Shown: positions 4,346 through 49,953, counted from the stretch's first letter. The stretch is 64,000 nt of DNA from an uncultured Eubacteriales bacterium (GCA_900542935.1 UQPN01000001.1:108149-172148); one strand, 5' to 3'. Made by a program: numbers and translations. Notes: a model not told the origin generated them from the sequence alone.

Positions 4346-4392
4346 TTTGCTTTTAATAAATTTGTTTTCGGTATGGCTCTTCTGTTAATGTT

Positions 4393-6245: not shown

Positions 6246-6538
6246 AAGAAGGCGGAGATTGACTTGTTGCATCGCCTTGCGGCAGGCGCGAAAGATTAAG
6301 ATAATTTTACGAAAAAAAATAAAAATAGCCCTTATAAAGACTTGATATTTTTTGCGTTTTATAGTAAAATAAGAATCGGTCGGATTTCCTGCCGCTTCTT
6401 TTTGCGTGGCGTTTATACCGCTTTCCGGGCGCTTTTTCGGCGCTGTACGGAGCTTTTTGCGGTGCGGGCGGGATTTTCCGTTTTAAATTCATCAAAGTAC
6501 CAAAAATCAAGAATTTTCATTTGGAGGAAGTATCACTT

Positions 6539-9947: not shown

Positions 9948-9986
9948 AAGAAATTAAAACTTCTTTGAATTTATTTCAAATACCTA

Positions 9987-16978: not shown

Positions 16979-16995
16979 AAACACAAGGGAAAACT

Positions 16996-17499
16996 ATGGA
17001 TAACGAAAAAATACGTTTAAAAATGACGGAACTGCAAGAAAAGATAGGATATCAATTTAGTGATATCAATTGGCTTTCAGCGGCAATGAAATCAGAAAAA
17101 ATCGAAGTTCGTAATGTTGGCAAAAATCATAAAGAATATACGAATGAAGGATTGGCGATAGTTGGCGACGCCGTTCTAAAAGCCGTTATTTCTGATTTTC
17201 TTTATAAAGGCGGGGTAACAAGAAAAGGTGAAATCACTACAAGAAAGAGTGAACTTGAAAATAATAAAAGTTTTCGTAAAATAATGACAGACAAAAAATT
17301 AATAGAATATGCCTATAATAATGAATATTTTCAGTCTGATAATCCGCCGAAACATAAACAGGTTGTAAATAAAAAACACGACCCGTATATTGAAGCGATT
17401 GTAGGTGCCGTTTATTATGATGCCGGCTTCGATAAAACGAAGAAATGGATAATAGAATGGCTATTACCGTTATTGGAAAAATATCGTTTAAATAATTAA
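16996..17499 (+). CDS. RNase III-domain protein (mini-III-like, no dsRBD), catalytic motifs partly divergent
   Basis: GYQFSDINWLSAAMKS...NEGLAIVGDAVL against the RNase III signature ERLEFLGDA; DPYIEAIVGAVYYDAG against DxxEALIGAIYLDxG; 167 aa. Confidence 0.65.
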   Translation: MDNEKIRLKMTELQEKIGYQFSDINWLSAAMKSEKIEVRNVGKNHKEYTNEGLAIVGDAVLKAVISDFLYKGGVTRKGEITTRKSELENNKSFRKIMTDKKLIEYAYNNEYFQSDNPPKHKQVVNKKHDPYIEAIVGAVYYDAGFDKTKKWIIEWLLPLLEKYRLNN

Positions 17500-17525
17500 G
17501 TAATTTTACACATCAGGGGATAACG

Positions 17526-29991: not shown

Positions 29992-29992
29992 T

Positions 29993-30601
29993 ATGGCTCA
30001 GCGCGCGAAATATAAGAGAGACCGAAAACCTCTTATTTTTATTGTTTGTGAAGGGCGTAATAAGACTGAAAGGACGTATTTCGGACATTTCAATACCAGA
30101 AAAGCACCTTTCAATTTACATATAGTGAACAGTGAGGCTACAGATATCGCCAGCATGGCGAAAAAAGCCGCAGATATATTTATCGAAAACCAACTGGATT
30201 CCGAATTGGGCGATAAGGTATATTGCCTGGTGGATTTAGATTTGGAACAATGTAAATATGAGAAATACGCCAAAGCCAAAAAGAAATATAAAAACATAGA
30301 AATTATTCCGTCTAATCCATGCTTTGAAATCTGGCTTTTATATTATTTTACAGAAGCGCCCAAAGTAGTTCATTCGTCTCAACGCGTTAAAGAAGAAATG
30401 GTAAAGAAATTACCGGGGTATACGGAAAGTATGGATGTTGTGGGTGTTGCAAATCTGTATGACAAACATTGGATTGCAATCAAGAATTCGGAAACAAAAA
30501 ATAGCAGGTATACCGAGGAACTTAATATACTTTCAAAAAATCCGTATACAGAGGTGGCGACCGTTGTCAAGGAATTGTTAAAGCGGCTGAAGGAATCGTA
30601 A
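29993..30601 (+). CDS. AbiLii/RloB-like protein (DUF4276, Toprim-like)
   Basis: LIFIVCEGRNKTERTYF matches the RloB signature; IPSNPCFEIWLLYYF; starts 1 nt after the ATPase stop. Confidence 0.75.
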   Translation: MAQRAKYKRDRKPLIFIVCEGRNKTERTYFGHFNTRKAPFNLHIVNSEATDIASMAKKAADIFIENQLDSELGDKVYCLVDLDLEQCKYEKYAKAKKKYKNIEIIPSNPCFEIWLLYYFTEAPKVVHSSQRVKEEMVKKLPGYTESMDVVGVANLYDKHWIAIKNSETKNSRYTEELNILSKNPYTEVATVVKELLKRLKES

Positions 30602-33822: not shown

Positions 33823-35500
33823 ATGAGTCGTTGTTTATATAACAGCAGTTTTGAGAAATTCATAAACGCTGATGATAATTCAATATTTTGTGCGTTATGT
33901 GATAATTATCACGGTGACGCACTTACAACCACAAGAGAAGCTTGGAGGTCTGAAATATCCATCATAAAGGGAGTTTTATTAAATTATGCGGATAAAAATG
34001 GTCAAGTTATATTTGAATATGATATTCCGCGTCTTGGAAAGCGTATTGACGTCGTTTTGCTTTTCAAAGGCATAGTTTTTTGCGTTGAATTTAAGGTTGG
34101 CGAATCAAAGATATTAGAGGCAGATATTGACAAAGTTCTTGACTATGCATTAGACCTTAAAAACTTCCATAAATTTAGTCAGGACAATCTTATTGTTCCT
34201 ATTTTAGTTGCAACAAATTATAGCAATTCGTCTACCGATATTAGAATGTCCGTTTATGATGACAGGTTTTTAATCCGCTCGTAACAGGCAAAGCAGGCGA
34301 TATCATAGAAGCGAAAGCAAAAAACTCTCCGATTCACGTAGAGAGGTAGGCAAGTTTATTCAAATTATCCACCGTTATCGTGATAATATGCTTGCAAAAA
34401 TCAAGAATCCGGTTGAAAACGGAGTTTTAGAGATTGACACTGAAAAGGCGGTAAAACTTGCAGAATCTGGCTACGGCGAAGTGGAACACGTTGCAATTTT
34501 TGACGAGGCGCAACGTTCTTGGACGCATAAAAGACTTGCGGATTATCTTAAAAGAGGCGGAACGTACGGTAATATATTAAAAGTTCCTAATTTTCCTATG
34601 TCTGAGGCGGCGTTTTTGATTTGGTCACTTGACCAACGTGAGGGATGGGCAACGATTATTTGTCTTGTTGGTGGCGGTCAAGAAATTAACACGGGTGAAG
34701 CTGGTATTTCCGAGTGGATTAACGCGCTTAATGAAAAATTCCCGCATTGGAATGTTTATATTTCGTCGAAATTAACGGAGGCAGAATACGCCGAAGGTAA
34801 AGTGAACGTATTGCTTGAAAAGAACGATAAAGTTACATATTCTGACAATTTACACCTTGCGGTTTCCTTGCGTTCTTATAGAGCGGAAAAACTCTCTGCG
34901 TTTGTTCATGTATTGCTGGCTATTGAGCCGACTGCGGCGGAATTATATAAAGAAATTAAGGGCAAGTATTCTATCGTACTTACAAGGGGGATATGGAAAA
35001 GGCAAAAAGGTGGTTACACGATAAAGTTAGGGGAACGAAGCGCACAGGTGTTCTTATAACAAAGGAGTCGGCAAGATTTAAGCCTTCGGGGATCCACGTA
35101 TTACTTTCAGGTGATGAAAATGCTGTTCATTGGTTCTTAGGAGATAAAATTGACACAAGAGCATCAAATTATCTTGAAGATGCGGCAACAGAAATCCAAG
35201 TACAAGGATTAGAGCTTGATTATACGTGTTTACTTTGGGATGCCGATATGCGATATGAAAACGGCTAGTGTCGTTTTTATAGATTTAACGGGCAAATAAT
35301 CCCGTGAAATAGCGCGCGAAAACAAGCAAGATTTAATGAAGTATATGCTTAATGCTTACCGTGTTTTATTGACACGTGCGAGAGCTGGTATGGTTATATG
35401 TGTTCCTGAAGGCAATGGAAACAAAAAACCCTAGTGGATTTTGGGAAGATTGTACACGTTTGCCTGAATATTACAACGGTACATATCAATACTTAAAAAG
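33823..35500 (+). pseudogene. Frameshifted/truncated paralogue of the DUF2075 gene at 10483-12612
   Basis: Three consecutive ORFs (33823-34284, 34388-35059, 34993-35268) are 75-85% identical to successive parts of the intact copy; the Walker A region is missing; stops and frame changes. Confidence 0.8.
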
Positions 35501-35521: not shown

Positions 35522-35842
35522 ATGAAAGAAATTATTTACGACAAACTTGTACGAGACAAAATCCCCAAAATCATTGAAAAGTCGGGTAAACAGTGTGAAA
35601 TAGAAATTCTGTCCGACGAAAAACATCTTGAAATGATAGATAAAAAGCTTGATGAGGAACTTGCGGAATATCACAAGGACCAAAACATTGAAGAACTTGC
35701 GGACCTTTTAGAAGTTATTTATGCGGCAACAAAGGCGCGCGGGTATTCTATTGAAGAATTAGAAAAGGTTAGGACTGAAAAGGCAGAAAGACATGGTGGA
35801 TTTGATAAGAAAATATTACTTAAAAAAGTAATAGAGGAGTAA
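35522..35842 (+). CDS. MazG-like all-alpha nucleoside triphosphate pyrophosphohydrolase (small)
   Basis: KLVRDKIPKIIE...EELADLLEVIYA...ERHGGF pattern; 106 aa; stop 2 nt before the next start. Confidence 0.6.
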   Translation: MKEIIYDKLVRDKIPKIIEKSGKQCEIEILSDEKHLEMIDKKLDEELAEYHKDQNIEELADLLEVIYAATKARGYSIEELEKVRTEKAERHGGFDKKILLKKVIEE

Positions 35843-35844: not shown

Positions 35845-38109
35845 ATGACGGAATTGAAGTCTATTTCCGGTAGCGGAGCAGAAGATTTATTCATAGATTT
35901 ATTTGCCGACACTTTTGGTGCGGAAAAGGCGGGGTATTTATATTCTCAATACCCTTTCTTTGACATATATCAAAATGCAAGATTTGCTGATTTTGTCTGC
36001 GAAAGTGGAGCAAAAAGAATTGCTATTGAAATAGACGATGAAGCATCGCACAATCCAAGACTTGTTTCAAAAGATAAATTCACAGACGATTTGCTCAAAC
36101 AGAACAGTATGATTCATCTCGGTTGGGACGTTTATCGTTGGACGGTTAGACAAATGCAAAAACAGCCCGACACGGTTAAAGATGAATTGCGTCTGTTTTT
36201 AGGCTCGGAAAGTAGATTTAAGGAAATAGACGATTATCTTCCTACCCAACGTGGACAAGCGCTTGACGGTGAAAAACTTGAACTTCGTGAATACCAGCAA
36301 GAAGCGCTTAAAAACTTGCAAGTTATGAGAGAAAATAAGGAAACGATTGCGCTCTTATATCAAGCAACGGGTACGGGTAAAACCGTAACGGCAGTTATGG
36401 ACGCTAAAAAAGTTGGCGGGCGTACGTTATTTGTTGCGCATACCATGGAACTTGTCAATCAAGCATATAAAACGTTTAAGTCAATATGGAATAGCGTTTC
36501 AGTGGGTAAATTTGCCGATAACGTAAAGGACTATGATTCGCACGTGATTTGTGGTAGTATTCAAAGTGTTGCGCTTAATTTGGACTCTTTTAAGTACGAC
36601 GATTTCGATTACATAATCATTGACGAAGCGCACCACGCCACGGCAGACACCTATCAAAAGGTTTTGGCGTATTTTAAGCCGAAATTTATATTAGGTTTAA
36701 CGGCTACGCCCGAACGCGCAGACGACACGAATATTCTTGAAATTTTCAAAAACACGGCACATAAATTAGATATTCAAACGGCAGTTGAAATGGGCGCGCT
36801 TACCAACGTTCGTTGTATCAGAATCCATACGAATATTGATATGACGAAAGTTCGTTTTAATAGCGTGCAGTATAATATTCGAGATTTAGACGTTAAAATT
36901 TGCATAACGGAAAGGAATAAACTCATTGTTGATACTTGGCTTAATTACGTTAAAGACAAGCGCACGGTAGTGTTCTGCGCTTCGGTAAAACACGCGGATC
37001 AGATAGCAGAACTTTTCAAGGAACAAGGCGTTTCGGCTATGGCGGTTTCAGGTAGTATGAAAACGTCCGAAAGAAACGAGCAAATTGCAAAGTTTGCCAG
37101 TGGCGAGTTGAAAGTTTTGTGTGCGTGTGATTTGTTAAACGAAGGCTGGGATTGTCCGCAAACGGAAGTGCTGTTTATGGCTCGTCTCACCATGTCAAAA
37201 GTTTTATATACGCAACAATTAGGTCGTGGTATGCGACTTAGCGAAGGGAAAGAGTTTTTAATGGTGTTTGACTTTGTGGACAACGCAAGTCAATATAACG
37301 CGCCGTATTCTATGCACCGTTTGTTTAAGATTAAGGATTATCACGCAGGTGGAACGGTTTTAGGAAAGAAAGGGCAACGGGAAGCGGAAATAGAGATTTA
37401 TGCGAAAGGAGAACGTCCCAATGCGGTTATAGATTATCCAGTTGATGCTACCGATTACGAAGCTGTTGATATCTTTAATTGGCAAGAAGAGGCGGTGGGT
37501 ATGATAAGTCAGATGGAATTTATTCGCCGTGTGGACGTTCAGTCTGAAACGATAGAGAGATATGTTCGTGAAGGAAAATTGATTCCAGACTTGGTAATAC
37601 CTATGAGCGAACACAGGGTGTTTAAGTATTTCAAAGAAGAAACTTTGGAACGTTATGCGCAAGAGTTTGGCTGGAAACTTATAGACGATAATAACCGCAA
37701 GACGTTGTTTTTGGAAATGGTTGAGCAAATGGATATGAGTTATTCTTATAAGCCTGTTTTGCTTAAAGCGGTACTGCAATATGCGGACAAGCAAGGTAGA
37801 GTGAAGATAGAAGATATCGTTTCGTATTTTAAGGCGTATTACGAAAATAGGCGAGCAAAAGGATTGAAAGTAGAGAAACAAAATAGCATTTTCGCAAAAG
37901 GCGGATATACCGATAAAGAAGCGGAACGAAATATTCTTTCTAATCCATTTAAGCGTTTTGAAGATATGAATATGATGCGTCATACAAAAACGCTTGGAAT
38001 CGTGGAAGTAGATTCAATCGTTTGGAAGAAACTTTCAGAGGACGAGAAAGAATATATACTTTCTGTTTGCGATAAAAAGTTGGACGAATATTACGCAAGA
38101 ATAAAGTAA
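35845..38109 (+). CDS. N-terminal DUF559/Vsr-like endonuclease fused to SF2 (DEAH, ResIII-type) helicase, with uncharacterised C-terminal domain
   Basis: ADFVCESGAKRIAIEIDDEASHN...IHLGWDVYRW (DUF559); helicase motifs QATGTGKT, IIIDEAHHA, LGLTATPER, QQLGRGMR. Confidence 0.8.
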   Translation: MTELKSISGSGAEDLFIDLFADTFGAEKAGYLYSQYPFFDIYQNARFADFVCESGAKRIAIEIDDEASHNPRLVSKDKFTDDLLKQNSMIHLGWDVYRWTVRQMQKQPDTVKDELRLFLGSESRFKEIDDYLPTQRGQALDGEKLELREYQQEALKNLQVMRENKETIALLYQATGTGKTVTAVMDAKKVGGRTLFVAHTMELVNQAYKTFKSIWNSVSVGKFADNVKDYDSHVICGSIQSVALNLDSFKYDDFDYIIIDEAHHATADTYQKVLAYFKPKFILGLTATPERADDTNILEIFKNTAHKLDIQTAVEMGALTNVRCIRIHTNIDMTKVRFNSVQYNIRDLDVKICITERNKLIVDTWLNYVKDKRTVVFCASVKHADQIAELFKEQGVSAMAVSGSMKTSERNEQIAKFASGELKVLCACDLLNEGWDCPQTEVLFMARLTMSKVLYTQQLGRGMRLSEGKEFLMVFDFVDNASQYNAPYSMHRLFKIKDYHAGGTVLGKKGQREAEIEIYAKGERPNAVIDYPVDATDYEAVDIFNWQEEAVGMISQMEFIRRVDVQSETIERYVREGKLIPDLVIPMSEHRVFKYFKEETLERYAQEFGWKLIDDNNRKTLFLEMVEQMDMSYSYKPVLLKAVLQYADKQGRVKIEDIVSYFKAYYENRRAKGLKVEKQNSIFAKGGYTDKEAERNILSNPFKRFEDMNMMRHTKTLGIVEVDSIVWKKLSEDEKEYILSVCDKKLDEYYARIK

Positions 38110-38217
38110 AATTATATACTTTTTAGTGGGGAAATTCGACAACTGCGGAAAAATATTATGATTACTGCGGAATAGATTTTAAATCTGGTTATGTTATAAT
38201 AGAAGTGGGGGAGTGTT

Positions 38218-41200
38218 ATGGTAGAAGTTGTTGCGGCGCTTATATGGGATAAGGATAAGTTTTTGATTTGTCAAAGACCTGCTAATAAAGCACGAGCTCT
38301 CCTTTGGGAGTTTGTTGGCGGCAAGGTTGAGAAAGGCGAAACAAAAGAGCAAGCCTTAATCCGTGAGTGCAAAGAAGAACTAAATATTACGCTAAACGTC
38401 GGTGACGTTTTTATGGAAGTTGTCCACGAATACCCCGATATTACCGTGCATTTGACTTTGTTTAATGCAACAATAGCCGAAGGCGTTCCACAAAAAATAG
38501 AGCATAACGATATAAAATGGATAACGTCGGCAGAAATTCCTAACTACAATTTCTGCCCAGCAGATGAAGAAATTTTAGAAAAAATTAAAAATATGAATAA
38601 AAAACAAACTAACAAAGAAAAACGAAAAAGAGATGATTTTACCGAATCGGTTAAAAGAAAAGCAGCCCAAAGAGTTGCGTATAGATGTTCTTTCCCCGGA
38701 TGTGGTGTTTCAACTATAGGACCAAAACATGGCGATGCATTGGGTGTAGCTTCAGTTGGACAAGCATGTCATATATGTGCGGCTGCGACAAATGGACCTA
38801 GATATGATGAAACGATGACAGAAAAAGAAAGGAAAGCCATAGAAAATTGTATTTGGATGTGTGATACGCACGCAAAATTAATTGATTCTGACGAATTTAA
38901 ATATCCTGTTTCATTATTACGAGAATGGAAGAATAGTGCAGAGAAAATAGCGGCTGAGAATTTAGCAAATTATAAGTTTTCTAAAGAACAGTTAAAAGAC
39001 ACAAATTCTTTAGCATTAATCTTTGACGAGTTAATTAAAGAGGGTAACTTTGATGCGTTAAGGATGATTATAGATAAAACAAACAAAGGTAGTAACGATG
39101 AAATATTATTGAGATATCAAGTCATCTATAATGTTTATTGTAATAGAGACGCATTACTCCTAAGCATAAATTATTATTTGCAGAATGCGAATCCGAAAAA
39201 ATGCGATGACATTTTAAGATGTTTAGTGGCAAATAATATTTCTAATGGAATAGATGAATTGCTTCCTTGTTGTGATAATGAGGAAATAAAGAAACTGGCA
39301 ATTGAGATTAAAAAGGAAAATATAAATAATTACATATTTAGAGATAAAAAAGAAATAGAGGAAGGACCATTACCTGCGTTTAAAGATAATGAAACGATTT
39401 CTAAGCTTTTATCTAATATTGTAATTATAAGCAAGTTTCCTGCGCTTCCAACTATGGCTAACGGAGAAAAGTTTGCTCTTTATGAAAAGGAATTTGTATG
39501 TGAGATGTTAGCGCATGCATGGAAACTGTTTAGTGGCATGTTGAAGCAGAAAAGTAAAAAAAATGACGAGGTACTGAAGGAACATTATCTTTTTATAAAG
39601 AAAGCAATTCCAAAAATTATTAAACTAGACAAAGCAATTCAAGAAAATATATGGTGCTATACTTTGAATTATGTATTAGCAGACGAGGGCGAATTTAACT
39701 ATATTTACTCAATGTGTCCGATATCTATAAGAGAAACAGGGCAGTGCAAACAAATTGAAACGCTTTTTGAATTAATGCATAATAAAATAGATGCGGACAA
39801 AGCCTTAGAGGACGAAGAATTGAAAAGAGACGAGGGGAAACTTGTACAGATTCTTTTATCTGCTTCTAAAGAAAAGAAATTTAGCTATCTTGAAGATAAT
39901 AAATTTTTATTAAAAAAGAATGTTTATTTTTTGTACGTTTGGACGACGTCATGTGATTTGGGTGAAGAAGATATAAGCAAAAACATTTTGTCATACAAGG
40001 CATATTTCGAGAATGATTTTTTATGGAACTGTTTAGCCGCTTATTATAATTGTATGGGGAATCCCTCTACAAATCTATCATGGATAATAGAACACAAACA
40101 GAATTTAGGATATCCTGAAATTGAATTGTTTATAAAAGTTTTAAGGAAATATAAACAATGGGATGAGTTAAATAAATTGGTAGAAGTGGTTATTCCTTTA
40201 GATATAAAATATCAAATAATATTAGCCTTAACTGAAAATACAAGTATTGAAAATATTCAAAATTGTATAAAGCTATTTGATAAATTAGAGCAATCTGAGT
40301 TTTGTAGAGAGGGCTTTTATTATAATTTTTCTTCTCTTTATTATCAAGTGAATGATGTTGTTAGGTCAAAAGCTTATCTTGAAAAAGAATTCGATGCGTA
40401 TCAAAAAGAAGAAAGTTTATTGGAATTACTAAAACTTCGATATAAAACGTTAGATTTTAAGCTGGATAGATACGTGGACGCAGCAAAAAACACGGCTAAT
40501 GCAGAAATTTTATTTCTTGTAGCAATTTTTTACGAAAAGAAACAAGATTTAAATCAACAAAGAGTATATTTGTTAAAAGCGCTATTTATAGACCCTCAAA
40601 ATGAAAACACATTAAGAGGTTTGGCTTCATGGTTCTTACAAAATGAAAAAAGTAGTTCTATAGAAATTGGTAAAATATACAAATTAAAAAATGACTCAAG
40701 GGAACTTAATGTAGCGTTGATAGATAGCAATTTAATTGAAGGAATTGCAACTAAAGAAGTAATAGGTTGTACGATTGTTAACTGTAAAGCAAATGGCGTC
40801 ATTGGTTGGAACTTTTACGATAAAAATGATGTTGTTGAATTTAATGGAGAAAAATTTAAGATAATTGATATAACTTCCTTCATACAGGAATTGTCTCAAT
40901 TTGTGATTGGGAAATTAATGACAGCTAAAGACGTTACAACTATAAAGGGTAGCACGACGGAAGAAGCAATAGAACAAATTAAACAATTGATGAATAAACA
41001 AGAGACTGAACAAAAAAGAGTTTTATCAATTTTTAATGAGTCAAGAGGTGTTTTGCCTATAACTATGCTTGCGCGAAAATTAGGTTGCGGCTATGAAGAA
41101 ACTTGGAACACAATAATTTCAATAAATGAGTTGAAAATTGACAATAGTAGCACGAGTGGACTAAACCAATGTAATTATATTATGGCGCATGATGCTATAG

Positions 41201-42081
41201 GAACACTTATGTCGCTAAACGCCATGGAAGATTTAAGCAATATTGACTTTATTCTACCGGAACAAGCAAAGATAGCTTTTCTGTCAAAGATAACAGAGAA
41301 GATTAATGATGTTCAATCTAAAAACTCTGTTGGAAAACTTTATACTCGAGATGATCAGCTGTACAGATTCGAGCATGATAAAGAATATAAAAAGGGCGCT
41401 GCTGTTTTTTTGTCAAAAGTAAAGGAATTTCTTGAAAAAATAGAGGGTGTTAATTGTAGTATTTATCAAACCACAAATTCAGATTTTAAAGCTTTTTTTA
41501 TAGATAATAATTTAGTTAACGAGAGTTACATGTTGGGATTAGCTCAATCAAACAATAACTATGTATTAGTAACAGATGAGCCGTTTATGTGCATTATTTG
41601 TGACATGGAAAAAATCCCACGTGTAAGCTTTATTGATTTATTATTGAATCAAAATTTGCCTTGCGACAAACTGCTGGATTATATGGAAAAATTATCTAAT
41701 TATAACTTCATAAATTTCTTTAACGCTGAACGATATAAAAGAATTATTGATTTTGCCTTAAAAGAAGATGAATTGAAAGCGAAAGAATTATTATTAAGAT
41801 TTGAGAAATGGCTAATGCCAGAGAATAGCTCTAAAGAACATCAGCAAAGAGTTTTTAATGTATATCGTGAACTTGGTATTGAGGATAGAGATTCAAGTTA
41901 TTTTAATTCTTTGAGTGAAATCGGAAGATTTTATTTTGCTAAACTTTTTCCAGAAAAGCATCAAGAAATCATAGAAAGAATTAAAAACATGAAATTCAAG
42001 GTAGAAGTTAAGCCTTCTGATGGGGAGGATTTTACAGTTCAAGTAGGCGTTTTTGAAAACGAAAATAATGAAGAAGGATAA
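38218..42081 (+). CDS. Giant protein (1287 aa): N-terminal Nudix hydrolase, then Cys/His-rich HNH-like module, then about 1000 aa alpha-helical region
   Basis: Nudix box GKVEKGETKEQALIRECKEELNI (GX5EX7REUXEE); CSFPGCG...QACHICAA...NCIWMCDTH resembles a zinc-binding HNH motif; roughly 30% GC. Confidence 0.65.
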   Translation: MVEVVAALIWDKDKFLICQRPANKARALLWEFVGGKVEKGETKEQALIRECKEELNITLNVGDVFMEVVHEYPDITVHLTLFNATIAEGVPQKIEHNDIKWITSAEIPNYNFCPADEEILEKIKNMNKKQTNKEKRKRDDFTESVKRKAAQRVAYRCSFPGCGVSTIGPKHGDALGVASVGQACHICAAATNGPRYDETMTEKERKAIENCIWMCDTHAKLIDSDEFKYPVSLLREWKNSAEKIAAENLANYKFSKEQLKDTNSLALIFDELIKEGNFDALRMIIDKTNKGSNDEILLRYQVIYNVYCNRDALLLSINYYLQNANPKKCDDILRCLVANNISNGIDELLPCCDNEEIKKLAIEIKKENINNYIFRDKKEIEEGPLPAFKDNETISKLLSNIVIISKFPALPTMANGEKFALYEKEFVCEMLAHAWKLFSGMLKQKSKKNDEVLKEHYLFIKKAIPKIIKLDKAIQENIWCYTLNYVLADEGEFNYIYSMCPISIRETGQCKQIETLFELMHNKIDADKALEDEELKRDEGKLVQILLSASKEKKFSYLEDNKFLLKKNVYFLYVWTTSCDLGEEDISKNILSYKAYFENDFLWNCLAAYYNCMGNPSTNLSWIIEHKQNLGYPEIELFIKVLRKYKQWDELNKLVEVVIPLDIKYQIILALTENTSIENIQNCIKLFDKLEQSEFCREGFYYNFSSLYYQVNDVVRSKAYLEKEFDAYQKEESLLELLKLRYKTLDFKLDRYVDAAKNTANAEILFLVAIFYEKKQDLNQQRVYLLKALFIDPQNENTLRGLASWFLQNEKSSSIEIGKIYKLKNDSRELNVALIDSNLIEGIATKEVIGCTIVNCKANGVIGWNFYDKNDVVEFNGEKFKIIDITSFIQELSQFVIGKLMTAKDVTTIKGSTTEEAIEQIKQLMNKQETEQKRVLSIFNESRGVLPITMLARKLGCGYEETWNTIISINELKIDNSSTSGLNQCNYIMAHDAIGTLMSLNAMEDLSNIDFILPEQAKIAFLSKITEKINDVQSKNSVGKLYTRDDQLYRFEHDKEYKKGAAVFLSKVKEFLEKIEGVNCSIYQTTNSDFKAFFIDNNLVNESYMLGLAQSNNNYVLVTDEPFMCIICDMEKIPRVSFIDLLLNQNLPCDKLLDYMEKLSNYNFINFFNAERYKRIIDFALKEDELKAKELLLRFEKWLMPENSSKEHQQRVFNVYRELGIEDRDSSYFNSLSEIGRFYFAKLFPEKHQEIIERIKNMKFKVEVKPSDGEDFTVQVGVFENENNEEG

Positions 42082-42102
42082 AATATAAAGGAGAATTTAC
42101 AA

Positions 42103-45100
42103 ATGGTAAAAAGTATGCAATGCGCAGTAGAAAAATTTGTAAAAGCAAAAGAAAACGGGCTTTGTTTAATAGATATGCCCACGGGTTCTGGTAAGACATA
42201 CCTTACTGGTAAAATTATAGGCGGATTTATTCGTGAAGAAATTCTACAAGACGTTAAAACTATCATTTATTTAACTCCGCAAAAGAAGAATATAGATGAT
42301 ATTTTTAATGACGTAAAGCGCGATTTTTCAGATAATCCGTCTCTTTTTGATGCAAATGTTTTGAGAATCTATGCGAATTATGAAAGTGTCTTAGATAAGT
42401 TTTTGGAGGTTTACGATAAAATCCCTTATGCGATTCAAAATAGACAGTCTTGTAAAGATTTGAAAAAGCAGATAGAACTTTATAACGATTTGCTAAATAG
42501 AAATATTCCAAAGGATATTTTAGATAGCACGCTTGCAGAAATAAGGAAACACTATGAGGTTGCGTTTAGAAAAGATTTAGCTGAAGAATTATCAAAGATT
42601 GCGAAAAATAAACGTGAAAAAAAGATAAAGCTTAATAGTAAAGAATATTCGTGGATAAAAGTGTTATATCCTGCTTGTTTAACAGAAGATAGAAAAGTTT
42701 TATTTATGACGGTTGATAAGTTTGTTTCAGGAAATGATCCGATTATTTCTAAATCATATCGTTTTATTTCGCACTCTAAGACAAAAAATGCATTAATTTT
42801 TATTGACGAATTTGATGCTACTAAAGACGTTTTACTTAATCAGGAAATACAGAATTGTACTGATTACAAAATGGATTTAATAAAGCTATTTTCTAGCATA
42901 TCAAACACATTAAAAGGCAGAGAATTTCCTTTATCGATATTTGCGAATTCTTTGGATGAGGACGATAAAACAAGTTCTATTTATCAGTTCAACAAAATGA
43001 AAAAATACTTTGAAGAGGTTGAGGAGAAGTATAATTTAAATTATTTATTCAAATTAGATCCTCAAGAAGAAAGTGATAGATATTTCTTGTTTGATGATTA
43101 CCAATTACATACGATAACAAATTCCAAAACTGATAAAAATATAATTTTAGAAGTAAATAAAAAGAAAAAGCAAAATACAATTTCCATCTCTAAAGATAGT
43201 GATGATGGAAAGTTTTATCGTACAATTTATTCAATTAAAAATACAATAAATGTCTTTATAGGTTGCTGCGCAAATATGGCAAAAGTTTATATGAATCATT
43301 ATAATAATGATGCTCGAAAAACCCATAGGGATATGATGGAAATTGACCAAGCGGTTAGTACTATAATTGATTTGTATAATTTAGACTATGTTATGGCTAA
43401 AAATATTACTGCCATGATAGTTGATAACATTTCTATTCCTGTTATAGATAGAGGTAGAGACGTATTTGATACTGATTTCTATATGAATGGGTTTAGATAT
43501 TATGATTTTAAGGATGATATATCCCACAATGAGTCTACAACAATGGCAATGTGCTATTTGGATAATACACCCGAAAAATTTATGCTTTCTCTAGCAAGCA
43601 AGGCAAGAGTGGTTGGATTGTCGGCTACTGCTAGTATTGAAACTGTTACGGGAAATTACAACATAGAATATTTAAGTGATAGGTTGAATGATGATTATTA
43701 TGAGATGCCCACTTATGATAAAGAAAATATTCAAAACTATATTAAATCGCGTCTAAATAATAGTGATAACATTAACGTAACGACAGAAAGTTTAGATGAA
43801 GTAAAGTCAGACAATCTAGAGGATATTCTTGCTCAATTATTTAATACGGACGAAAATATAGAGTTGTTCACAGGGAAACTTGCTAGATATCAACAAACAG
43901 ATAAAAGAGATCCGTTTTATAATGTGAAAAGAATCGTTAAGGCAATGAAAGCTGTAAGGGCTTTTATTGAAAATAAGGCTTCTAAAGTTTTATTAGTAAT
44001 GACGAATAGGAACGTTGTAGAATATAGCGAATATAATATATTTTCTGAAGAAATAATTGAAGCGTTGATTGATTCCTTGTGCAATGAAATGGAGGTAAGC
44101 AAACCGAAGGCACACTACTTAAACAGTTCAGAATTTCTAGCTCAAAAAGAAGATTATAAAAAAGATATTCAGCTGGGCGAAAAGGTTATATTGTTTTCCA
44201 GCTACAATACGGCAGGAACCGGACAAAACCTTCAATATGAAATAGATAACAAAGAAATGGATATTGACTCGCTCTATTTGGAACTTCCAACAAATATTTT
44301 AGTCAATGTTTCAGAACTTAGGGAAGAGGCTAGTTTGATAAAACTAATTTATCAATATGAAACATTGAAAACAAGTGGGGAAATAACAAAAAATACAGCA
44401 TTTGGTAATATCAAATCTGCGTTTAGACGATTAATGACGGCAAATAAGACCGACCATTTTGATTATTATGCTTATAAAGCAGAATCTATAAATAATCACA
44501 TAGTAAAAATAGTTATTCAAGCGGTGGGTAGAATTTGTCGTACAAAAAACAAAAATACAAATATAAACATTTATGTTGACGAAGAGATTTTTAAAAACGT
44601 TGACTTTTCTGTGGCTTTTAAAAATGATAGAATATTAAATCCAGAATTTAGAAAAATTGCGGAATTGAATGCAAAAACGAGTCCTAGTGATATACATATT
44701 AATTTAAATAAGGCTTGTGATAGAAATGCTCGTGTAAAAACGCGCATAGAAAATATTCTTAATGTAAATAGAACATCTTGGAGTGATAAGGATGTAGAAC
44801 AGTGGAATGATATGCGAGAATTCGTATTGAAGCATCCCACAATTCCAAAATCAGAATTAACTTTAGAAGTAAAAAAACATTATTCTGTTAGAGATTTTTA
44901 CCTTGAAGCGAGGGATGGAGAAACAATAAATCATTATTTATATATTAATGATGAAACCGAAGCAAAACAAATACTTTATGATTATAGTTTAGAGAAAAGA
45001 AAAAATACAATCAGGATAGATGAATATGGTACTAGATTAACTAATTTAATACGTATTCCTGCGGTTAAAAAGGTTTTTGAAGAAAACGGTTATGCTATAT

Positions 45101-45564
45101 CTTTCAAAAGTAATGATTGCATGATATTGCCGGTAGTTTATCAAAATATTTATAAAGGAGCGCTTGGAGAAGTAGCTGGTAAGGCTATTTTAGAGGCTAA
45201 TGGCATCAAATTATCCGAAATTACAGATGTTACTAAGTTTGAAAAATTCGATTTTTGTTTAATGGCAGATAAAGATGTTTATATCGATTTTAAAAACTGG
45301 TCAGAGCAAGATAAAGTAGATAGAGATGAGTATAGAAAAAAGTGTTTGGCTAAATTAGACAAAATTGGAGGCAAAAAAGTATTTATCATAAATGTGGCGG
45401 CTAACAACTTTCAAATTCATAGTAGTTATAACAATAAAATTATTGAGATTTCAAGTTTGTGTAAAATAATGCCTAAATCAGAATTGTTGTATCAATTGGA
45501 TGAAAGAGATATGAGCAGGGTTATTAGATTGTTATTGGAGGCTTGTAACAATGGCAATATGTAA
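42103..45564 (+). CDS. SF2 helicase-like protein (1153 aa) with C-terminal PD-(D/E)xK nuclease-like motif
   Basis: Motif I DMPTGSGKT, II FIDEFD, III LSATAS, VI QAVGRICR; C-terminus FEKFDFCLMADKDVYIDFK (D...D-x-K). Confidence 0.65.
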   Translation: MVKSMQCAVEKFVKAKENGLCLIDMPTGSGKTYLTGKIIGGFIREEILQDVKTIIYLTPQKKNIDDIFNDVKRDFSDNPSLFDANVLRIYANYESVLDKFLEVYDKIPYAIQNRQSCKDLKKQIELYNDLLNRNIPKDILDSTLAEIRKHYEVAFRKDLAEELSKIAKNKREKKIKLNSKEYSWIKVLYPACLTEDRKVLFMTVDKFVSGNDPIISKSYRFISHSKTKNALIFIDEFDATKDVLLNQEIQNCTDYKMDLIKLFSSISNTLKGREFPLSIFANSLDEDDKTSSIYQFNKMKKYFEEVEEKYNLNYLFKLDPQEESDRYFLFDDYQLHTITNSKTDKNIILEVNKKKKQNTISISKDSDDGKFYRTIYSIKNTINVFIGCCANMAKVYMNHYNNDARKTHRDMMEIDQAVSTIIDLYNLDYVMAKNITAMIVDNISIPVIDRGRDVFDTDFYMNGFRYYDFKDDISHNESTTMAMCYLDNTPEKFMLSLASKARVVGLSATASIETVTGNYNIEYLSDRLNDDYYEMPTYDKENIQNYIKSRLNNSDNINVTTESLDEVKSDNLEDILAQLFNTDENIELFTGKLARYQQTDKRDPFYNVKRIVKAMKAVRAFIENKASKVLLVMTNRNVVEYSEYNIFSEEIIEALIDSLCNEMEVSKPKAHYLNSSEFLAQKEDYKKDIQLGEKVILFSSYNTAGTGQNLQYEIDNKEMDIDSLYLELPTNILVNVSELREEASLIKLIYQYETLKTSGEITKNTAFGNIKSAFRRLMTANKTDHFDYYAYKAESINNHIVKIVIQAVGRICRTKNKNTNINIYVDEEIFKNVDFSVAFKNDRILNPEFRKIAELNAKTSPSDIHINLNKACDRNARVKTRIENILNVNRTSWSDKDVEQWNDMREFVLKHPTIPKSELTLEVKKHYSVRDFYLEARDGETINHYLYINDETEAKQILYDYSLEKRKNTIRIDEYGTRLTNLIRIPAVKKVFEENGYAISFKSNDCMILPVVYQNIYKGALGEVAGKAILEANGIKLSEITDVTKFEKFDFCLMADKDVYIDFKNWSEQDKVDRDEYRKKCLAKLDKIGGKKVFIINVAANNFQIHSSYNNKIIEISSLCKIMPKSELLYQLDERDMSRVIRLLLEACNNGNM

Positions 45565-47284
45565 TCAACTTAACGTAAGGTTTAATCTCCAAGAAATAGA
45601 TAATACATTTGATTTTTATTTAATTAATACCACGGAAAAATATATCCCGTTTGGTGCTAAATGTTTAGATTTTGAAACCGGCAAAATAGAAAGCTTAGCT
45701 TTTGAAAATGGAAAATCATTGTATCTAATGTTAAAAAAAGAAATCTTTTCAAAAATGGATTTAGTTAAACAACTAGACAATGCAAAACTTTATATAAAAA
45801 GAATTAATTCATCGGAAATTCCTAATTATATTTTATTTAGGTTGTTTTTGTATTCGTTGAACAATTTTAATTCGGAGAATTTAAGCTTTAATAATTTAAC
45901 TGGAAAGTTTTATATTCTTAAACCAGAGTGGATGAAAAAAAATAGAAGTTCTTTTACCGCTTTAGGAATAAATGTGGATGTTGACATGAACATACTTGTC
46001 GAGGCTGCTACTTTTGCCAAATATTCATTGTTTAAGAAAAATAAGAAAATAAATGAGTATCCAAAATATATTTTTAGCAATAAGAATTGTTCATTAAAAC
46101 GCGTTTTTGATATTACGTCAGATGATATTTATATAAAGAAGGGCATCTATAATAAAAAAGCAGAAGTTCCCTTTTTTACTATGAGTAGGGAAGACTTGAA
46201 AAACAATAAGGTTTATTATTTATATTACGTTTTAAGATTATTAAAAAGTAAATATAGTAAACTAATTGAATTTTCATTTGATATGATTGAGGTTGTTAAG
46301 ACTATAGGTGTTGAAAGAGATAAATTATTTATGAATTACGCCTTGGATGAGATTAAAAGAATGGAAATTAATCTTGTTAACGTTGTTGATAGGGCAGAGT
46401 ATGAAGAAGAATTTGATACTCTAACAGATAAAATACAAGAAAGTATTGGCGTTTGTGATATAAATACAAGTAAGAAAATTGAAAAAGATAAAGCAAATAT
46501 TGTACTTATTCACAATAAGGAATATTATGAGCAATTAGAGTATCCAGACCCTCATAAAAACTTTGAACGTTCAACGTTAGTTCAATGTGTTACAGTTGAA
46601 GATAGCGCGGAAAAAATTATAAATGACAACGAAGCAATTATAAATACAATAATTAAGGAAGTCGTTATTAAAAATGACATTTTAAATAAAAAAGATATTT
46701 CGTTAGATAACTGGGCATCATACGGCTTTACGTGCGACTGGATATTTGGAAAAGAAAAAGATGGGAAGCATTATTTTATAGTAATTCACCCTAACGGAAG
46801 TTTTGAATTATATAATAAATTAGATGACTTTTCTTCATTTGATATTGATATATTAAATGAATGCTCGGACTATTTAACCGATAATAAGGGGAAAGAAAAA
46901 ACCATTATTGCTTCTACTGATGGGAATATTAATGTCATAACGAGAACAAATAGATATCCATTACCAGAGGAGGAAATTTTTGAACAAGAAATAATAAGCC
47001 GTAGTAAAGAAGCCAGGGATAGATTTTTATCTGGTGTTGTAGATATAAATCTTTATGAAGATGGTTTGTATTACAGCGTGGGCATAAAAGGTAGTGGCAT
47101 GAATACAAAAGTTATACGTGCGCCACATTTATACAAGGTAGAGGTTGTTTCCGGCAAAAATATTACGGAGGATATTCTATCAACTTTAAGTGCAACCTTT
47201 GTTAAATATAAATCTTTTACGGTTTTACCATATCCAGTGAAATATTTAAACGAATATATTTTAATGATTGAAAGGTTGCTGTGA
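45551..47284 (+). CDS. Hypothetical protein (577 aa); start overlaps the upstream helicase gene
   Basis: Long ORF, roughly 28% GC, 14-nt overlap with 42103-45564; no recognisable motifs. Confidence 0.5.
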   Translation: MAICNQLNVRFNLQEIDNTFDFYLINTTEKYIPFGAKCLDFETGKIESLAFENGKSLYLMLKKEIFSKMDLVKQLDNAKLYIKRINSSEIPNYILFRLFLYSLNNFNSENLSFNNLTGKFYILKPEWMKKNRSSFTALGINVDVDMNILVEAATFAKYSLFKKNKKINEYPKYIFSNKNCSLKRVFDITSDDIYIKKGIYNKKAEVPFFTMSREDLKNNKVYYLYYVLRLLKSKYSKLIEFSFDMIEVVKTIGVERDKLFMNYALDEIKRMEINLVNVVDRAEYEEEFDTLTDKIQESIGVCDINTSKKIEKDKANIVLIHNKEYYEQLEYPDPHKNFERSTLVQCVTVEDSAEKIINDNEAIINTIIKEVVIKNDILNKKDISLDNWASYGFTCDWIFGKEKDGKHYFIVIHPNGSFELYNKLDDFSSFDIDILNECSDYLTDNKGKEKTIIASTDGNINVITRTNRYPLPEEEIFEQEIISRSKEARDRFLSGVVDINLYEDGLYYSVGIKGSGMNTKVIRAPHLYKVEVVSGKNITEDILSTLSATFVKYKSFTVLPYPVKYLNEYILMIERLL

Positions 47285-47403
47285 TATTGGCAGATAAAAT
47301 GTTTTTAGATTTTTGCAATAGGATAACCCATGATACGATTCCAAACGGGAGTAGAAATTAAGAAATTTTAGCTCAAAAAAGACAATAGAAGGACTAGGTA
47401 AAA

Positions 47404-49953
47404 ATGAAACAAGGGTATAGAATTATTTCAATTGAAGCGGCGGATATTTATCGGCAAGAGCAAGAAAACGGCGTTAGCGTTGGGTATGTAATGCCTGAAA
47501 AGAAAAGCGACGCCTATTTCCGTTTGTTCAAAATCTATTTAGATAATTCGCTAGACCTTATAGAGCTTGAAAAGGCGTACGCGCGTATTTGCCGTAAAAA
47601 GTTCTCTTTTCAAGACAAGCACGAGCACGATTATACCCTTGCCGTAATTAACTTAAAGTTTAACTATACGTACAAGCCCGAAAACGACAAACCTGTAAAA
47701 ATCAAAGACTTGCGCTCACATTTCTGCGAAAACGGTTTTTATTTAGACGGCGTTCATTACGTAAGATACAAGCGTAGCGCGGGTAGTTCACGAGAAGGCA
47801 AGTGCCTTTTTATTGACGAGCGATTGTATAAAGCAATGGATAAGTGGAGCGGTTGCGGATTAAAAGCTCAAACTGACCTTGCTTCGTGGGAATCATATAA
47901 AGCGTTATCATTAAGTAGCATCAAGGGGACAGTGAATATTCCATTTCATGGAATACTTTTCGTTCCCGATTATAAAAGCGTATTTACGGAAGAAGTAATA
48001 TCCGTAGAACTTAAGGATAGCAAACTTGTAGCCGAGCAAAAGCAAACGGAAATAACTAACGACATTTGGGATGGCGAGAGCCTTTTAGACGAGAGCGTGT
48101 TTGAAAGCGGCTATGCGGACAAGCATATGTTACTTCTTCGTAATAAGTTTTTTAAGTCTTGCGCTTTTAGAACAAAACTTCAAAAATGGATAAAAGATAA
48201 AAACATTACGCTTGCCGATTTGAAAACAAGGGGATTTACTCTTGCAACCGACATAAGTCAAATTGTTATGGTAACGACGCCAAATAGTTTGAAATATCTT
48301 AAATTTGTTGGAGGTCTTTCCGAAAAGAATATTTGCAAGTGGGTGGAAAACGTAACCGATACGTTCGGTGTAGTTAAATGGGATAAAAGCACGAGATTTT
48401 TTCAGGGCGATATGGTGCAGGGCAGTTATCAACTACTGAACACGTTAGGTCTTGATAAGGCGCAAGCGGAAGAGCTATTAAAGCCGAGTTTTGACTATAT
48501 CTCGCTTGTTCGTAACGACGTGGAATTTATGCGCTATCATTTTACTGATGCTTACGCAAGAGAAAAGGATGGGGAAGAAAAGAAAGCTCCCGACGGACTT
48601 GCCGATCGTGCCGACGTTATTTTTAGATTGCTTTTCAGTTGTACGCATTTTAATACAACGGCATTATATGCTAATTTTAGAGATGACGTAGTAAGCGGAC
48701 TAAAAAGCAGTTTGCGCCGTGGACATATTTTATTAAACGGCACGAACGCAACGTTGTTCGGCAACGGACCTGAACTGTTAAAGTACATAGCCGGCGAAAA
48801 GATAACAAGCGAGTTAAAGAAGGGACAAATTTACTGCAAGAGATTCGAAAGCGGCGCGAAACTTCTTTGCGCGCGCTCACCGCATATAACGATGGGCAAC
48901 CTTTACTGTGTGGAAAACAACCTTAGCGGAGAGATTTGGAATTACTTCAATTTAGGTAAAAATATCGTTTGTGTAAATGCTATTGGCGAGAATATTCAAC
49001 AGCGCTTAAATGGTTGCGATTACGATTCGGATTCTATGCTCATCACCGACGATAAGTTGATGGTGGAGAGCGCCGAGAAATATAAAGAGCAGTTCAAAGT
49101 GCCCGTTTGCGGTATTTCCTCAATGAGTAAAAATGGTCAAACGCTTGCAGAGCTCGACCACGACACAAGCGAAAACAAAATAGGCGAAATCGTAAATCTA
49201 TCGCAAAAATTAAATAGTATTATATGGAACGAAATGAAAGGCGGTGCACCTACGGAGAAAATCTTAGAGATTTATAACGACGTTTGTAAGCTTGCCGTTT
49301 TGTCAGGCTTAGAGATAGACAAAGCAAAGCGCGCTTACGATAACGTAAACGTTGGGAAAGAACTTTTCGCATTGCGCAAGAAGTATAATAGTCCTGCGCC
49401 GATTTTCTTTAAGGAAATCGACGATAAGGGAAAAGAAAACGAGTATACTTTTTATGATACGGCGATGGATTATATCTACCAAGCCGTTAAAAAGTTTAAC
49501 TTTGTAAAGGGCAAAAGGAAAAGAGTTAATTATATGCCCATTTCTTGGGTCGTGGGAGAAATTACGACTTCGGATAACGCTACCGATTATAGGCATAGAG
49601 ATAAAATCATTGAGATTTGCGAAGAGTATAGAAAGAGAATTGACCGTTTGTATATGGAACTACGAGTTTCGGATGACCAAGAAAAAGAGGTTGTTTACGA
49701 AAAAATAGAAGAAGAGAAAGCCGATAGAGATAAGCAAGTTTCCAAATGGCTAACGAGTAGAAACGTTCTTATATTCGTGGCTCGCCACTATGAAAAGAAT
49801 CGTCCGTCCGATTGGCGAATTTATGCCCCGATAGTAAATGCTCGTCACTTTAAGGATTTTATGCTTAAAGGCGGTTCTCCTATAGGGTTCGTTGAGGAAA
49901 GTAGAGACGGGAATATTATTGTTTATGGTAAGAAATTCGCAATAAAATGGTAA
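47404..49953 (+). CDS. Putative single-subunit double-psi beta-barrel RNA polymerase homologue (YonO/RdRP-like)
   Basis: ARSPHITMGNLYCV followed 34 aa later by NGCDYDSDSMLITDD, parallel to RNAP beta-prime RAPTLHRLGIQAF...NADFDGDQMAVH; 849 aa (SPbeta YonO is of similar size). Confidence 0.45.
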   Translation: MKQGYRIISIEAADIYRQEQENGVSVGYVMPEKKSDAYFRLFKIYLDNSLDLIELEKAYARICRKKFSFQDKHEHDYTLAVINLKFNYTYKPENDKPVKIKDLRSHFCENGFYLDGVHYVRYKRSAGSSREGKCLFIDERLYKAMDKWSGCGLKAQTDLASWESYKALSLSSIKGTVNIPFHGILFVPDYKSVFTEEVISVELKDSKLVAEQKQTEITNDIWDGESLLDESVFESGYADKHMLLLRNKFFKSCAFRTKLQKWIKDKNITLADLKTRGFTLATDISQIVMVTTPNSLKYLKFVGGLSEKNICKWVENVTDTFGVVKWDKSTRFFQGDMVQGSYQLLNTLGLDKAQAEELLKPSFDYISLVRNDVEFMRYHFTDAYAREKDGEEKKAPDGLADRADVIFRLLFSCTHFNTTALYANFRDDVVSGLKSSLRRGHILLNGTNATLFGNGPELLKYIAGEKITSELKKGQIYCKRFESGAKLLCARSPHITMGNLYCVENNLSGEIWNYFNLGKNIVCVNAIGENIQQRLNGCDYDSDSMLITDDKLMVESAEKYKEQFKVPVCGISSMSKNGQTLAELDHDTSENKIGEIVNLSQKLNSIIWNEMKGGAPTEKILEIYNDVCKLAVLSGLEIDKAKRAYDNVNVGKELFALRKKYNSPAPIFFKEIDDKGKENEYTFYDTAMDYIYQAVKKFNFVKGKRKRVNYMPISWVVGEITTSDNATDYRHRDKIIEICEEYRKRIDRLYMELRVSDDQEKEVVYEKIEEEKADRDKQVSKWLTSRNVLIFVARHYEKNRPSDWRIYAPIVNARHFKDFMLKGGSPIGFVEESRDGNIIVYGKKFAIKW

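Follow-up and report, generated by a model that had tools for sequence, protein, structure and literature searches.

The stretch of DNA analysed here, 64,000 nucleotides (nt) from an uncultured Eubacteriales bacterium (GCA_900542935.1, UQPN01000001.1:108149-172148; hereafter the window), contains an open reading frame (ORF) of 1287 amino acids (aa) that joins a Nudix domain to a Cys/His-rich module and a long helical scaffold. Is the Nudix an integral part of a giant immune effector, as a first-pass annotation had proposed, or has a separate gene been joined to its neighbour? We consider the 1287-aa protein to be probably a real but recent chimera that arose by cassette exchange at a hotspot of a defence island. 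The Nudix-HNH-scaffold fusion itself was confirmed, while its interpretation as an integral effector was not, as the family is otherwise Nudix-less and the Nudix is usually a separate protein. On present evidence the gene reveals no established new class of 'Nudix effector'.

The ORF ran from ATG to stop at exactly 38218..42081 on the + strand, in agreement with the coordinates, start, and strand annotated earlier; the opposite strand was rich in stop codons. An identical fused architecture was present on three independent public contigs (L001, L002, and L003), and the fused ORF is therefore not an assembly artefact. The ORFs of the window, L002, and L003 were intact across 1286-1287 codons. 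The domains listed earlier (Nudix, Cys/His module, helical scaffold) were all recovered; a β-rich domain, a probable C-terminal PIN-like domain, and two downstream genes, DdmD- and DdmE-like, had been overlooked. The features of the gene are as follows.

38207..38213, + strand: strong Shine-Dalgarno sequence GGGGGAG, 4 nt ahead of the ATG at 38218, read from the sequence
38218..38589, + strand: MutT/NudG-type Nudix domain, aa 1-124, from Pfam, PADLOC, and PDB matches
38320-38388, + strand: Nudix box, aa 35-57, regular-expression match to GX5EX7REUXEEXGU
38590..38634, + strand: left recombination junction and linker, aa 125-139, NMNKKQTNKEKRKRD, from the junction alignment to locus L089
38635..38967, + strand: predicted HNH (His-Me finger) domain of the Cap5/SPARHA clade, aa ~140-250, from profile and PDB matches and invariant residues
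38980..40647, + strand: tetratricopeptide repeat (TPR)-like α-solenoid, aa ~255-810 (~550 aa), from the structure model, Foldseek, and the family profile
40669..40920, + strand: small β-rich domain, aa ~818-901, with strands in both structure models
41170..41697, + strand: probable PIN-like α/β domain, aa ~985-1160, with conserved acidic residues
41725..42081, + strand: C-terminal tail with helical bundle, β-hairpin, and stop codon, from the structure models

The origin of the fusion was examined by aligning the window with a sister locus, L089, in which the gene order is 754-aa helicase, stand-alone 130-aa Nudix, SAVED effector, SMODS CD-NTase, Cap2, Cap3, DdmD, and DdmE. The left flank (window 36849-38589, L089 1-1741) was 93.7% identical in DNA and the right flank (window 42062-47448, L089 6513-11897) 97.7% identical. 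Between them, the 3.5-kb HNH-TPR body of the window is unrelated to the 4.8-kb cassette of L089, which encodes a cyclic oligonucleotide-based antiphage signalling system (CBASS). On the left, homology stopped at 38589, after Nudix codon 124 (...ATT AAA) and 3 nt ahead of the ATG of codon 126. In L089, seven more Nudix codons lead to a TAA that shares bases with the start codon (ATG) of the SAVED gene. The window instead has AAT and then, in frame, the ATG of Met126 (38593), and the Nudix stop codon is lost. On the right, homology resumed at ~42062, at the Shine-Dalgarno site of DdmD. The GC content of third codon positions was 0.35 in the Nudix and fell at the junction to 0.21-0.25 in the rest of the operon. 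The 15-aa linker was disordered in the AlphaFold2 model, with a predicted local distance difference test score (pLDDT) of 34. The HNH-TPR gene ancestrally began at Met126, and the fusion is accounted for by a cassette swap that broke 3 nt upstream of this ATG and removed the Nudix stop. It was seen in one clade only, comprising the window and the three contigs, and always upstream of the DdmD/DdmE pair.

No Shine-Dalgarno sequence comparable to that at 38207-38213 was found in the region upstream of Met126. For this reason, we infer that the HNH-TPR body is translated as part of the fusion and is now made only as a 149-kDa product that relies on the ribosome-binding site of the Nudix; a separate body from an internal start at Met126 is, on the same ground, unlikely. 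Promoter and terminator scans performed no better than on shuffled sequences.

The cassette of L089 (Logan ERR11473643 contig 4645, positions 1370-6483) is a complete type II CBASS cassette lying between the stand-alone Nudix and the DdmDE pair; its SAVED effector has 486 aa, its Cap2 is E1/E2-like, and its Cap3 is of the JAB type. Recombination between a Cap5 HNH and the HNH of the present family was rejected as an origin, as that SAVED effector is unlike the HNH of the window and both breakpoints fall at gene boundaries. The string AAAATAT occurs at both window junctions (38586-38596 and 42076-42086) and TTAAA at both L089 junctions; these repeats are probably due to chance in DNA of 30% GC, and could otherwise mark microhomology or a recombination site.

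The distribution of the body was consistent with a late addition of the Nudix. Among the homologues of the body, a Nudix was present only in P0001 and P0002, which are 88% identical. P0003-P0037, of ~1120-1170 aa, cover the query from aa ~133 and open with a Met just ahead of a conserved 'RDDF'; P0038 (1275 aa) carries an N-terminal extension unrelated to Nudix. Of 1.84 billion representative clusters (50% identity), an exhaustive HMMER search with the scaffold alone returned 107, of which nearly all have ~1130-1200 aa, with the scaffold beginning at aa ~135. Because a Nudix-less start is nearly universal among the homologues, the ancestral and fixed architecture is HNH plus scaffold. In 19 Nudix-less loci (about 14 distinct), neither DdmD nor DdmE was nearby; the upstream neighbours included type III restriction-modification (R-M), Eco57I-like R-M, AbiEii, Fic, DUF6076, a methyltransferase, a metallophosphatase, and GMP synthase. 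These neighbours are heterogeneous, and therefore the body acts as a self-contained single-gene module lodged beside other defence systems. It belongs, as an autonomous protein, to an HNH-TPR-(PIN-like) family. The idea that this family has a conserved small partner gene was considered and rejected, the upstream genes being mutually unrelated. One homologue, from a metagenome-assembled genome of an uncultured Christensenella (L009:7613-11030), is distributed over three ORFs of 414, 213, and 494 aa and is probably a pseudogene or the result of assembly frameshifts.

The Cys/His block CSFPGCG...ACHICAA...NCIWMCDTH was present at aa 157-218 of the protein. The catalytic residues H185, N210, and H218, together with C211 and C215, were invariant across the homologues, and C157, C162, and C187 were conserved in at least 90%. 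This region matched the CBASS 'Effector Endonuclease' (6.5e-18) and SAVED_HNH (1.4e-15) models of PADLOC, and the family profile matched the SPARHA HNH-APAZ structure 9om4 (1.2e-16) and Cap5 structures (8ysq/7rwm/7rwk; 1e-9 to 1e-7). Furthermore, ββα elements were seen in the AlphaFold2 model. The Cys/His region is thus a catalytic-type HNH of the Cap5/SPARHA clade. The HNH-like reading given at first pass was upheld, and the invariant triad, aligned to solved HNHs, speaks against a purely non-catalytic zinc ribbon.

The AlphaFold2 model covered aa 126-1287 and was built on 39 homologues (mean pLDDT 86, predicted TM score 0.71). The solenoid was all-helical, mostly with pLDDT above 85, which agrees with the long helical scaffold noticed earlier. 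The top Foldseek matches were TPR superhelices (IFT-A, Ctr9, Ski3, and APC/C), and a search with the whole model returned only generic TPR proteins. The family profile matched consensus TPR (CTPR) designs at positions 555-685 (3e-8 to 1e-5), and homologues showed faint Pfam TPR_1/TPR_2 matches. The solenoid is presumed to be a sensor or oligomerisation scaffold. Structure searches with the β-rich domain (aa ~818-901) gave no specific fold match. The following α/β domain, aa ~985-1160, is probably PIN-like; D992, E1102, D1120 (within an invariant T-D-x-x-F), and E1131 are its conserved acidic residues. None of the three sites, Nudix, HNH, and PIN-like, has lost its catalytic residues. Neither a P-loop ([AG]x4GK[ST] or GxGK) nor an AAA, NACHT, or STAND Pfam match was found in the protein, and the reading as an Avs/STAND protein was rejected for lack of a P-loop; the model shows the region in question as a solenoid made of helices throughout. 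No APAZ-like domain was detected in the protein. SAVED and SMODS matches were likewise absent from the protein and its operon, such genes being found only in the sister locus L089.

The relatives of the Nudix indicated that its 3' end is a place where neighbours change. We collected the 80 closest relatives in metagenomes, which are 77-94% identical. Seventy-six of them are ordinary stand-alone ORFs of about 125-157 aa, and a 232-codon call in L140 is an upstream-start artefact. The conserved sequence of the stand-alone proteins ends at aa ~122-124, and their short tails all differ and are encoded by the downstream DNA. The three that remain are read-through extensions: L160 (669 aa), L111 (197 aa), and L115 (216 aa). 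The ORF of L160 (6992-9010; 669-672 aa) has a Nudix head matching PDC-S07 (1.8e-43), followed by a BnzB-like region (PADLOC, 5e-31). The Nudix usually trails another gene, often with overlapping stop and start codons: a type IV mREase-like PLD-helicase-DUF3427 protein in 15 loci, a PDC-S41 Schlafen-type helicase in 8, the pair of a 106-aa ORF and a 754-aa helicase in 6, and type III Res, DndA/SspA, and others elsewhere. PDC-S07 and PDC-S41, like PDC-M68, are 'guilt-by-embedding' candidate systems (10.1101/2024.01.29.577857). The 3' end of the Nudix is therefore a recurrent edge of a slot that takes varying defence cassettes, and read-through in frame is a by-product to be expected in about one of three events. 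Read-through fusions recur (four lineages seen) because the left junction falls in the last codons of the resident gene.

Outside defence, too, the Nudix has become joined to another protein, here a metabolic and unrelated one: in 'type I' pullulanases of Oscillospiraceae (~770 aa; P0039-P0120), a C-terminal Nudix is 65-72% identical to that of the window (in P0042, at aa ~645-771). A role as a CBASS-specific accessory was rejected, as CBASS genes were not detected at any of the 80 closest loci and the neighbours there were diverse. In L098 (2312-7399), the stand-alone Nudix lies directly behind a type III R-M pair (a 573-aa protein and an 870-aa Res), and in L004-L006 Nudix-less HNH-TPR genes lie directly after type III R-M; the two seem to share a slot type, the 3' end of restriction operons. 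A peptide deformylase gene (~141-149 aa) is found a few kb downstream of the stand-alone Nudix in 11 loci (e.g., L114:10075-10524) and may belong to a mobile-element backbone rather than to defence.

Here, we propose the following model for the birth of the gene. A resident stand-alone Nudix gene of ~130 aa would naturally end a few codons inside the downstream DNA. A complete HNH-TPR-β-PIN-like gene with its own Met126 start would have been placed 3 nt after Nudix codon 124, filling the slot that is held by the type II CBASS operon in L089. The Nudix stop would have been lost, the frames matching by chance, and the body would have become dependent on the ribosome-binding site of the Nudix.

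Several points weigh against this model. The comparison of the window with L089 leaves either cassette, HNH-TPR or CBASS, as a possible first occupant. The fusion is intact in alleles that have diverged to a synonymous distance (dS) of 0.3-0.8, and the body lacks a separate ribosome-binding site; because of this retention and this dependence, the fused unit may now be selected. The second fusion of the Nudix to a defence protein, in L160, could be a sign that such fusions are favoured and not accidental. Functional coupling is also conceivable in view of the 21 nt that separate the gene from DdmD and of the presence of DdmDE in 4/4 fusion loci.

The alternative that survives best holds that the Nudix is functionally integrated with the HNH and PIN nucleases and that selection favoured the fusion. 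Either the Nudix would destroy phage-specific or modified (deoxy)nucleoside triphosphates ((d)NTPs), making invader DNA cleavable, or it would serve as a nucleotide-sensing or regulatory head. An intact Nudix box is compatible with such a role. The box (GKVEKGETKEQALIRECKEELNI) has R49, E50, E53, and E54 and deviates from GX5EX7REUXEEXGU only at U (Cys51) and at the last G (Asn56), so that the near-canonical box described earlier was found at aa 35-57 with two departures. The head scored 79.2 bits against the Pfam NUDIX_4 cut-off of 35 (E 2.7e-22) and 56.4 against 21.1 for NUDIX, and matched PADLOC PDC-S07 at 1.3e-44 over 125/135 model positions, a domain that is fused here and stand-alone in sister alleles. 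The best PDB matches were MutT 5x1x (2.5e-24 over 122/130 residues), E. coli NudG 2rrk (5e-21), and an RppH-like NTP/RNA pyrophosphohydrolase of Bdellovibrio, 3ees (8e-21). The equivalog models of MutT, an 8-oxo-dGTP diphosphatase, remained below their curated cut-offs (TIGR00586, 84.1 bits vs 97.9; PRK10776, 77.4 vs 148), as did PRK10546, the equivalog of NudG, a pyrimidine (d)NTP diphosphatase (97.5 vs 156; E 5e-28); the domain is MutT/NudG-like and assignable to neither equivalog. NudG of E. coli is a CTP and 5-methyl-dCTP pyrophosphohydrolase, and NudG-type enzymes use modified pyrimidine dNTPs, an action that would suit an integrated effector.

Selection was examined by pairwise Nei-Gojobori estimates of ω (the ratio of non-synonymous to synonymous rates) between alleles. 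In the Nudix, ω was 0.04-0.16 among fused alleles vs 0.05-0.14 among stand-alone alleles; in the body, it was 0.10 for the HNH, 0.13-0.14 for the TPR, and 0.16-0.22 for the C-terminal part. The fused Nudix is under purifying selection that is no stronger than when it stands alone. Because the box is intact, MutT is matched at 2.5e-24, and ω is 0.04-0.16, the Nudix is very likely catalytically competent, and the activity anticipated at first pass is supported. The non-synonymous distance (dN) of the window Nudix was 0.024-0.036 to stand-alone alleles vs 0.029 to the fused allele of L002, and dS between the window and L002 was higher in the Nudix (0.73) than in the body (0.34-0.43). The equal dN distances and the higher dS of the Nudix both suggest that the flanks continue to recombine.

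Integration draws further support from the retention of the fusion in three diverged alleles besides the window, from the independent fusion to a BnzB-like defence protein, and from the habitual translational coupling of stand-alone copies to nuclease-helicase genes (type IV mREase, PDC-S41). However, the equal ω of fused and stand-alone copies means that the constraint needs no new role, and about 100 clusters of the family manage without a Nudix. The junction, moreover, lies exactly at a gene boundary with the ATG of the body retained, at an in-frame chance of about 1 in 3; the linker is disordered; and L001 has a TGA at Nudix codon 10 although its remaining operon is intact. We consider selected integration unlikely. 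The wider idea that the PDC-S07 Nudix is a general 'nucleotide-pool arm', hydrolysing modified or non-canonical dNTPs of phages, and that fusion couples pool editing to DNA/RNA cleavage, is a speculative one to which we give little credence; if it were true, a new tri-catalytic type of immune effector would have been born by read-through at a cassette-swap hotspot.

The second alternative concerns the genes around the fusion, which are listed below.

35522-35842, + strand: 106-aa ORF, conserved left flank
35845-38109, + strand: 754-aa superfamily 2 helicase, type IV restriction-like (Pfam ResIII/Helicase_C; PADLOC mREase_IV, 1e-54)
42103..45564, + strand: DdmD-like helicase-nuclease, 1153 aa, starting 21 nt after the stop codon of the fusion gene
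45551..47284, + strand: DdmE-like short Argonaute-like protein, 577 aa, overlapping DdmD by 14 nt

The pair of the 106-aa ORF and the 754-aa helicase was also found upstream of the Nudix in L001 and L089. The DdmD-like protein matched PADLOC DdmD (1.6e-36 over aa 155-1122), PDB 9ix4 (3.1e-49), and DdmD of Vibrio cholerae (1e-37). The DdmE-like protein matched PDB 8u0j/8u3k/9ezy (7e-9) and 9iw3 (7e-4); its homologues form more than 130 clusters, each behind a DdmD-sized gene in the loci read, and its closest relative, P0223 (95% identical, 304 member sequences), is that of L089. The two downstream genes are thus predicted to constitute a DdmDE operon, and the fusion protein matches neither of them.

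By analogy with the HNH-APAZ protein of SPARHA, the fusion protein might be a third subunit of a DdmDE-type system, its HNH/PIN/TPR parts being recruited or activated by DdmE or DdmD. This would fit the 21-nt spacing and the lack of a +-strand terminator-like site within the operon, the conservation of the trio in the window, L001, L002, and L003 despite differing outer flanks, and the fact that the closest solved HNH belongs to an effector associated with a prokaryotic Argonaute. However, in L089 it is a CBASS cassette that precedes the DdmDE pair, whose DNA is 97.7% identical; the genes upstream of DdmDE relatives with 78% and 64% identity are unrelated; and none of the 19 Nudix-less HNH-TPR loci has DdmD or DdmE nearby. 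The characterised system, in addition, has two proteins (PMC13618286), and no APAZ is detectable in the fusion protein. A three-component system therefore appears quite improbable.

A third alternative regards the fusion as a neutral or slightly deleterious accident en route to decay, with the Nudix as dead weight or the whole chimera inactive. It rests on L001, where TGA (9983-9985) replaces the TGG of Trp10 of the window and L002 and the rest of the operon is intact; the gene is called from an internal start (P0002, 1272 aa), which truncates the N-terminus of the Nudix. In comparisons with L001, the Nudix also showed about twice as many non-synonymous differences; the clade has very few members, and the neighbouring PDC-S41 gene of the window is already broken. 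The TGA, seen on a single Logan contig, is either a genuine nonsense mutation or an error; recoding of TGA in L001 was rejected, as roughly 3000 other codons of the operon are called normally in the standard code. On the other side, the ORFs of the window, L002, and L003 are intact, all segments have ω of 0.04-0.22, and the residues of the Nudix, HNH, and PIN-like sites are retained. We regard decay as very unlikely.

Finally, hydrolysis of NAD, ADP-ribose (ADPR), or nucleotide caps, by an NAD-depleting effector or a signal-degrading sensor, is the first-pass suggestion that fared worst and is highly improbable: such activities exist in the Nudix superfamily, and RppH-like 3ees and weak sub-threshold RppH-type and NAD diphosphatase matches (8e-5 to 3e-4) point that way, but the top matches are all MutT/NudG-type NTP pyrophosphohydrolases, the NAD diphosphatase model NF001299 reached 20.2 bits vs a cut-off of 158 and the RppH models ~16-23 vs 118-139, no ADPR-type family was among the NCBIfam matches, and the domain is a minimal ~125-aa MutT core without additional substrate-specifying insertions.

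The recent chimera that we favour lies in a ~45-kb low-GC mobile island within a host of ~50% GC. Besides numerous defence genes, the island holds two relaxases, a serine recombinase, and an IS110 element, and the defence setting assumed in the first annotation is correct. At 33823-35059, a PDC-S41 / Schlafen-group-3 helicase gene is broken into 153-aa and 223-aa fragments plus a gap; an intact 712-aa orthologue is present in L001 (5220-7358). Directly behind DdmE, at 47404-49953, an 849-aa ORF with a higher GC content (0.40) had no Pfam, NCBIfam, or PADLOC match; it is partly conserved after DdmE in L002 and L003, where it is called as split genes, and absent in L001. A possible multi-gene defence cluster at 12786-20276 encodes proteins of 1015 aa (SIR2_2), 382 aa (with sigma-70 region 4), and 167 aa (RNase III-like), together with a 916-aa superfamily 1 helicase (AAA_11/AAA_12) with a C-terminal DUF2726/DUF559 nuclease-like domain. 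At 28720-30601, an AAA_21 ATPase (423 aa) and an RloB-like protein (243 aa) have overlapping calls (29870-29991 shared), and a similar AAA_21 and RloB pair lies downstream of DdmDE in L093.

As to how the chimera would work, the ~1150-aa body may act as a single-protein sensor-effector. The TPR and C-terminal domains would keep the Cap5/SPARHA-type HNH silent as long as no trigger causes the protein to oligomerise; HNH dimers or tetramers would then permit DNA cleavage, and the PIN-like domain could supply another nuclease activity or have a regulatory function. The Nudix would continue its stand-alone role, most likely (d)NTP hydrolysis of the MutT/NudG class, on a flexible 15-aa linker. DdmDE, an adjacent module also found paired with other cassettes, would be an independent, co-transcribed plasmid and DNA defence module.

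Our literature searches returned no description of an HNH-TPR-PIN protein, a Nudix-HNH fusion, or a third gene of DdmDE. If confirmed, the ~1150-aa HNH-TPR-β-PIN-like protein would represent an apparently undescribed single-gene candidate defence family of gut Clostridia, and would extend the theme of the oligomerisation-activated HNH to an ATPase-free TPR sensor. The locus would also document, at base-pair resolution, the birth of a multidomain immune protein, with CBASS or HNH-TPR cassettes exchanged between conserved flanks, and would provide a lead on PDC-S07 as a MutT-like Nudix habitually trailing type IV restriction-like and Schlafen-helicase defence genes.

Compared with known systems, the Nudix shares its minimal core and best matches with MutT, NudG, and PDC-S07, and differs in being fused and in scoring under the MutT and NudG equivalog cut-offs. 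The Cap16 / 2TM-Nudix effectors of CBASS likewise have a Nudix domain within a defence protein; they are membrane proteins with a C-terminal Nudix and cyclic-nucleotide signalling, whereas the present Nudix is N-terminal, soluble, and MutT-type. In Avs/STAND-type and other nuclease-TPR sensor-effector proteins, an N-terminal nuclease effector is followed by a TPR-like sensor. The body similarly combines a nuclease with a long TPR-like sensor in one ~1150-aa polypeptide within defence islands, but without a P-loop or STAND NTPase and with a β domain and a PIN-like domain at its C-terminus.

DdmDE of Vibrio cholerae is a plasmid-defence system (Jaskolska 2022, Loeff 2024, Bravo 2024, as cited in PMC13618286). 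The two genes behind the fusion correspond to solved DdmD and DdmE and overlap in the manner of an operon, but the fusion protein is no known component, the local DdmE is ~100 aa shorter than characterised ones, and the association is limited to one clade. The best solved match of the HNH, 9OM4, comes from SPARHA short-Argonaute systems, in which it serves as the HNH-APAZ effector (Kanevskaya et al. 2025, PMC12738770), and the fusion gene also adjoins a short Argonaute-like gene; unlike SPARHA, the protein has no detected APAZ, its family is otherwise not Argonaute-linked, and the known partner of DdmE is DdmD. The same paper mentions HNH-NACHT-TPR fusions and describes activation of this HNH clade by tetramerisation via N-terminal-helix dimers, driven by diverse sensor platforms (PMC12738770). 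Finally, Cap5 (PDB 7RWK/7RWM/8YSQ/8FMF) has an N-terminal HNH of the same clade, with which the N-terminal helix, Cys ligands, and H-N-H residues align. The fusion protein differs from Cap5 in having no SAVED domain and no CD-NTase in its operon, a ~1000-aa TPR/β/PIN-like sensor part, and an extra N-terminal Nudix, and activation by sensor-driven oligomerisation is likely common to both (PMC12738770).

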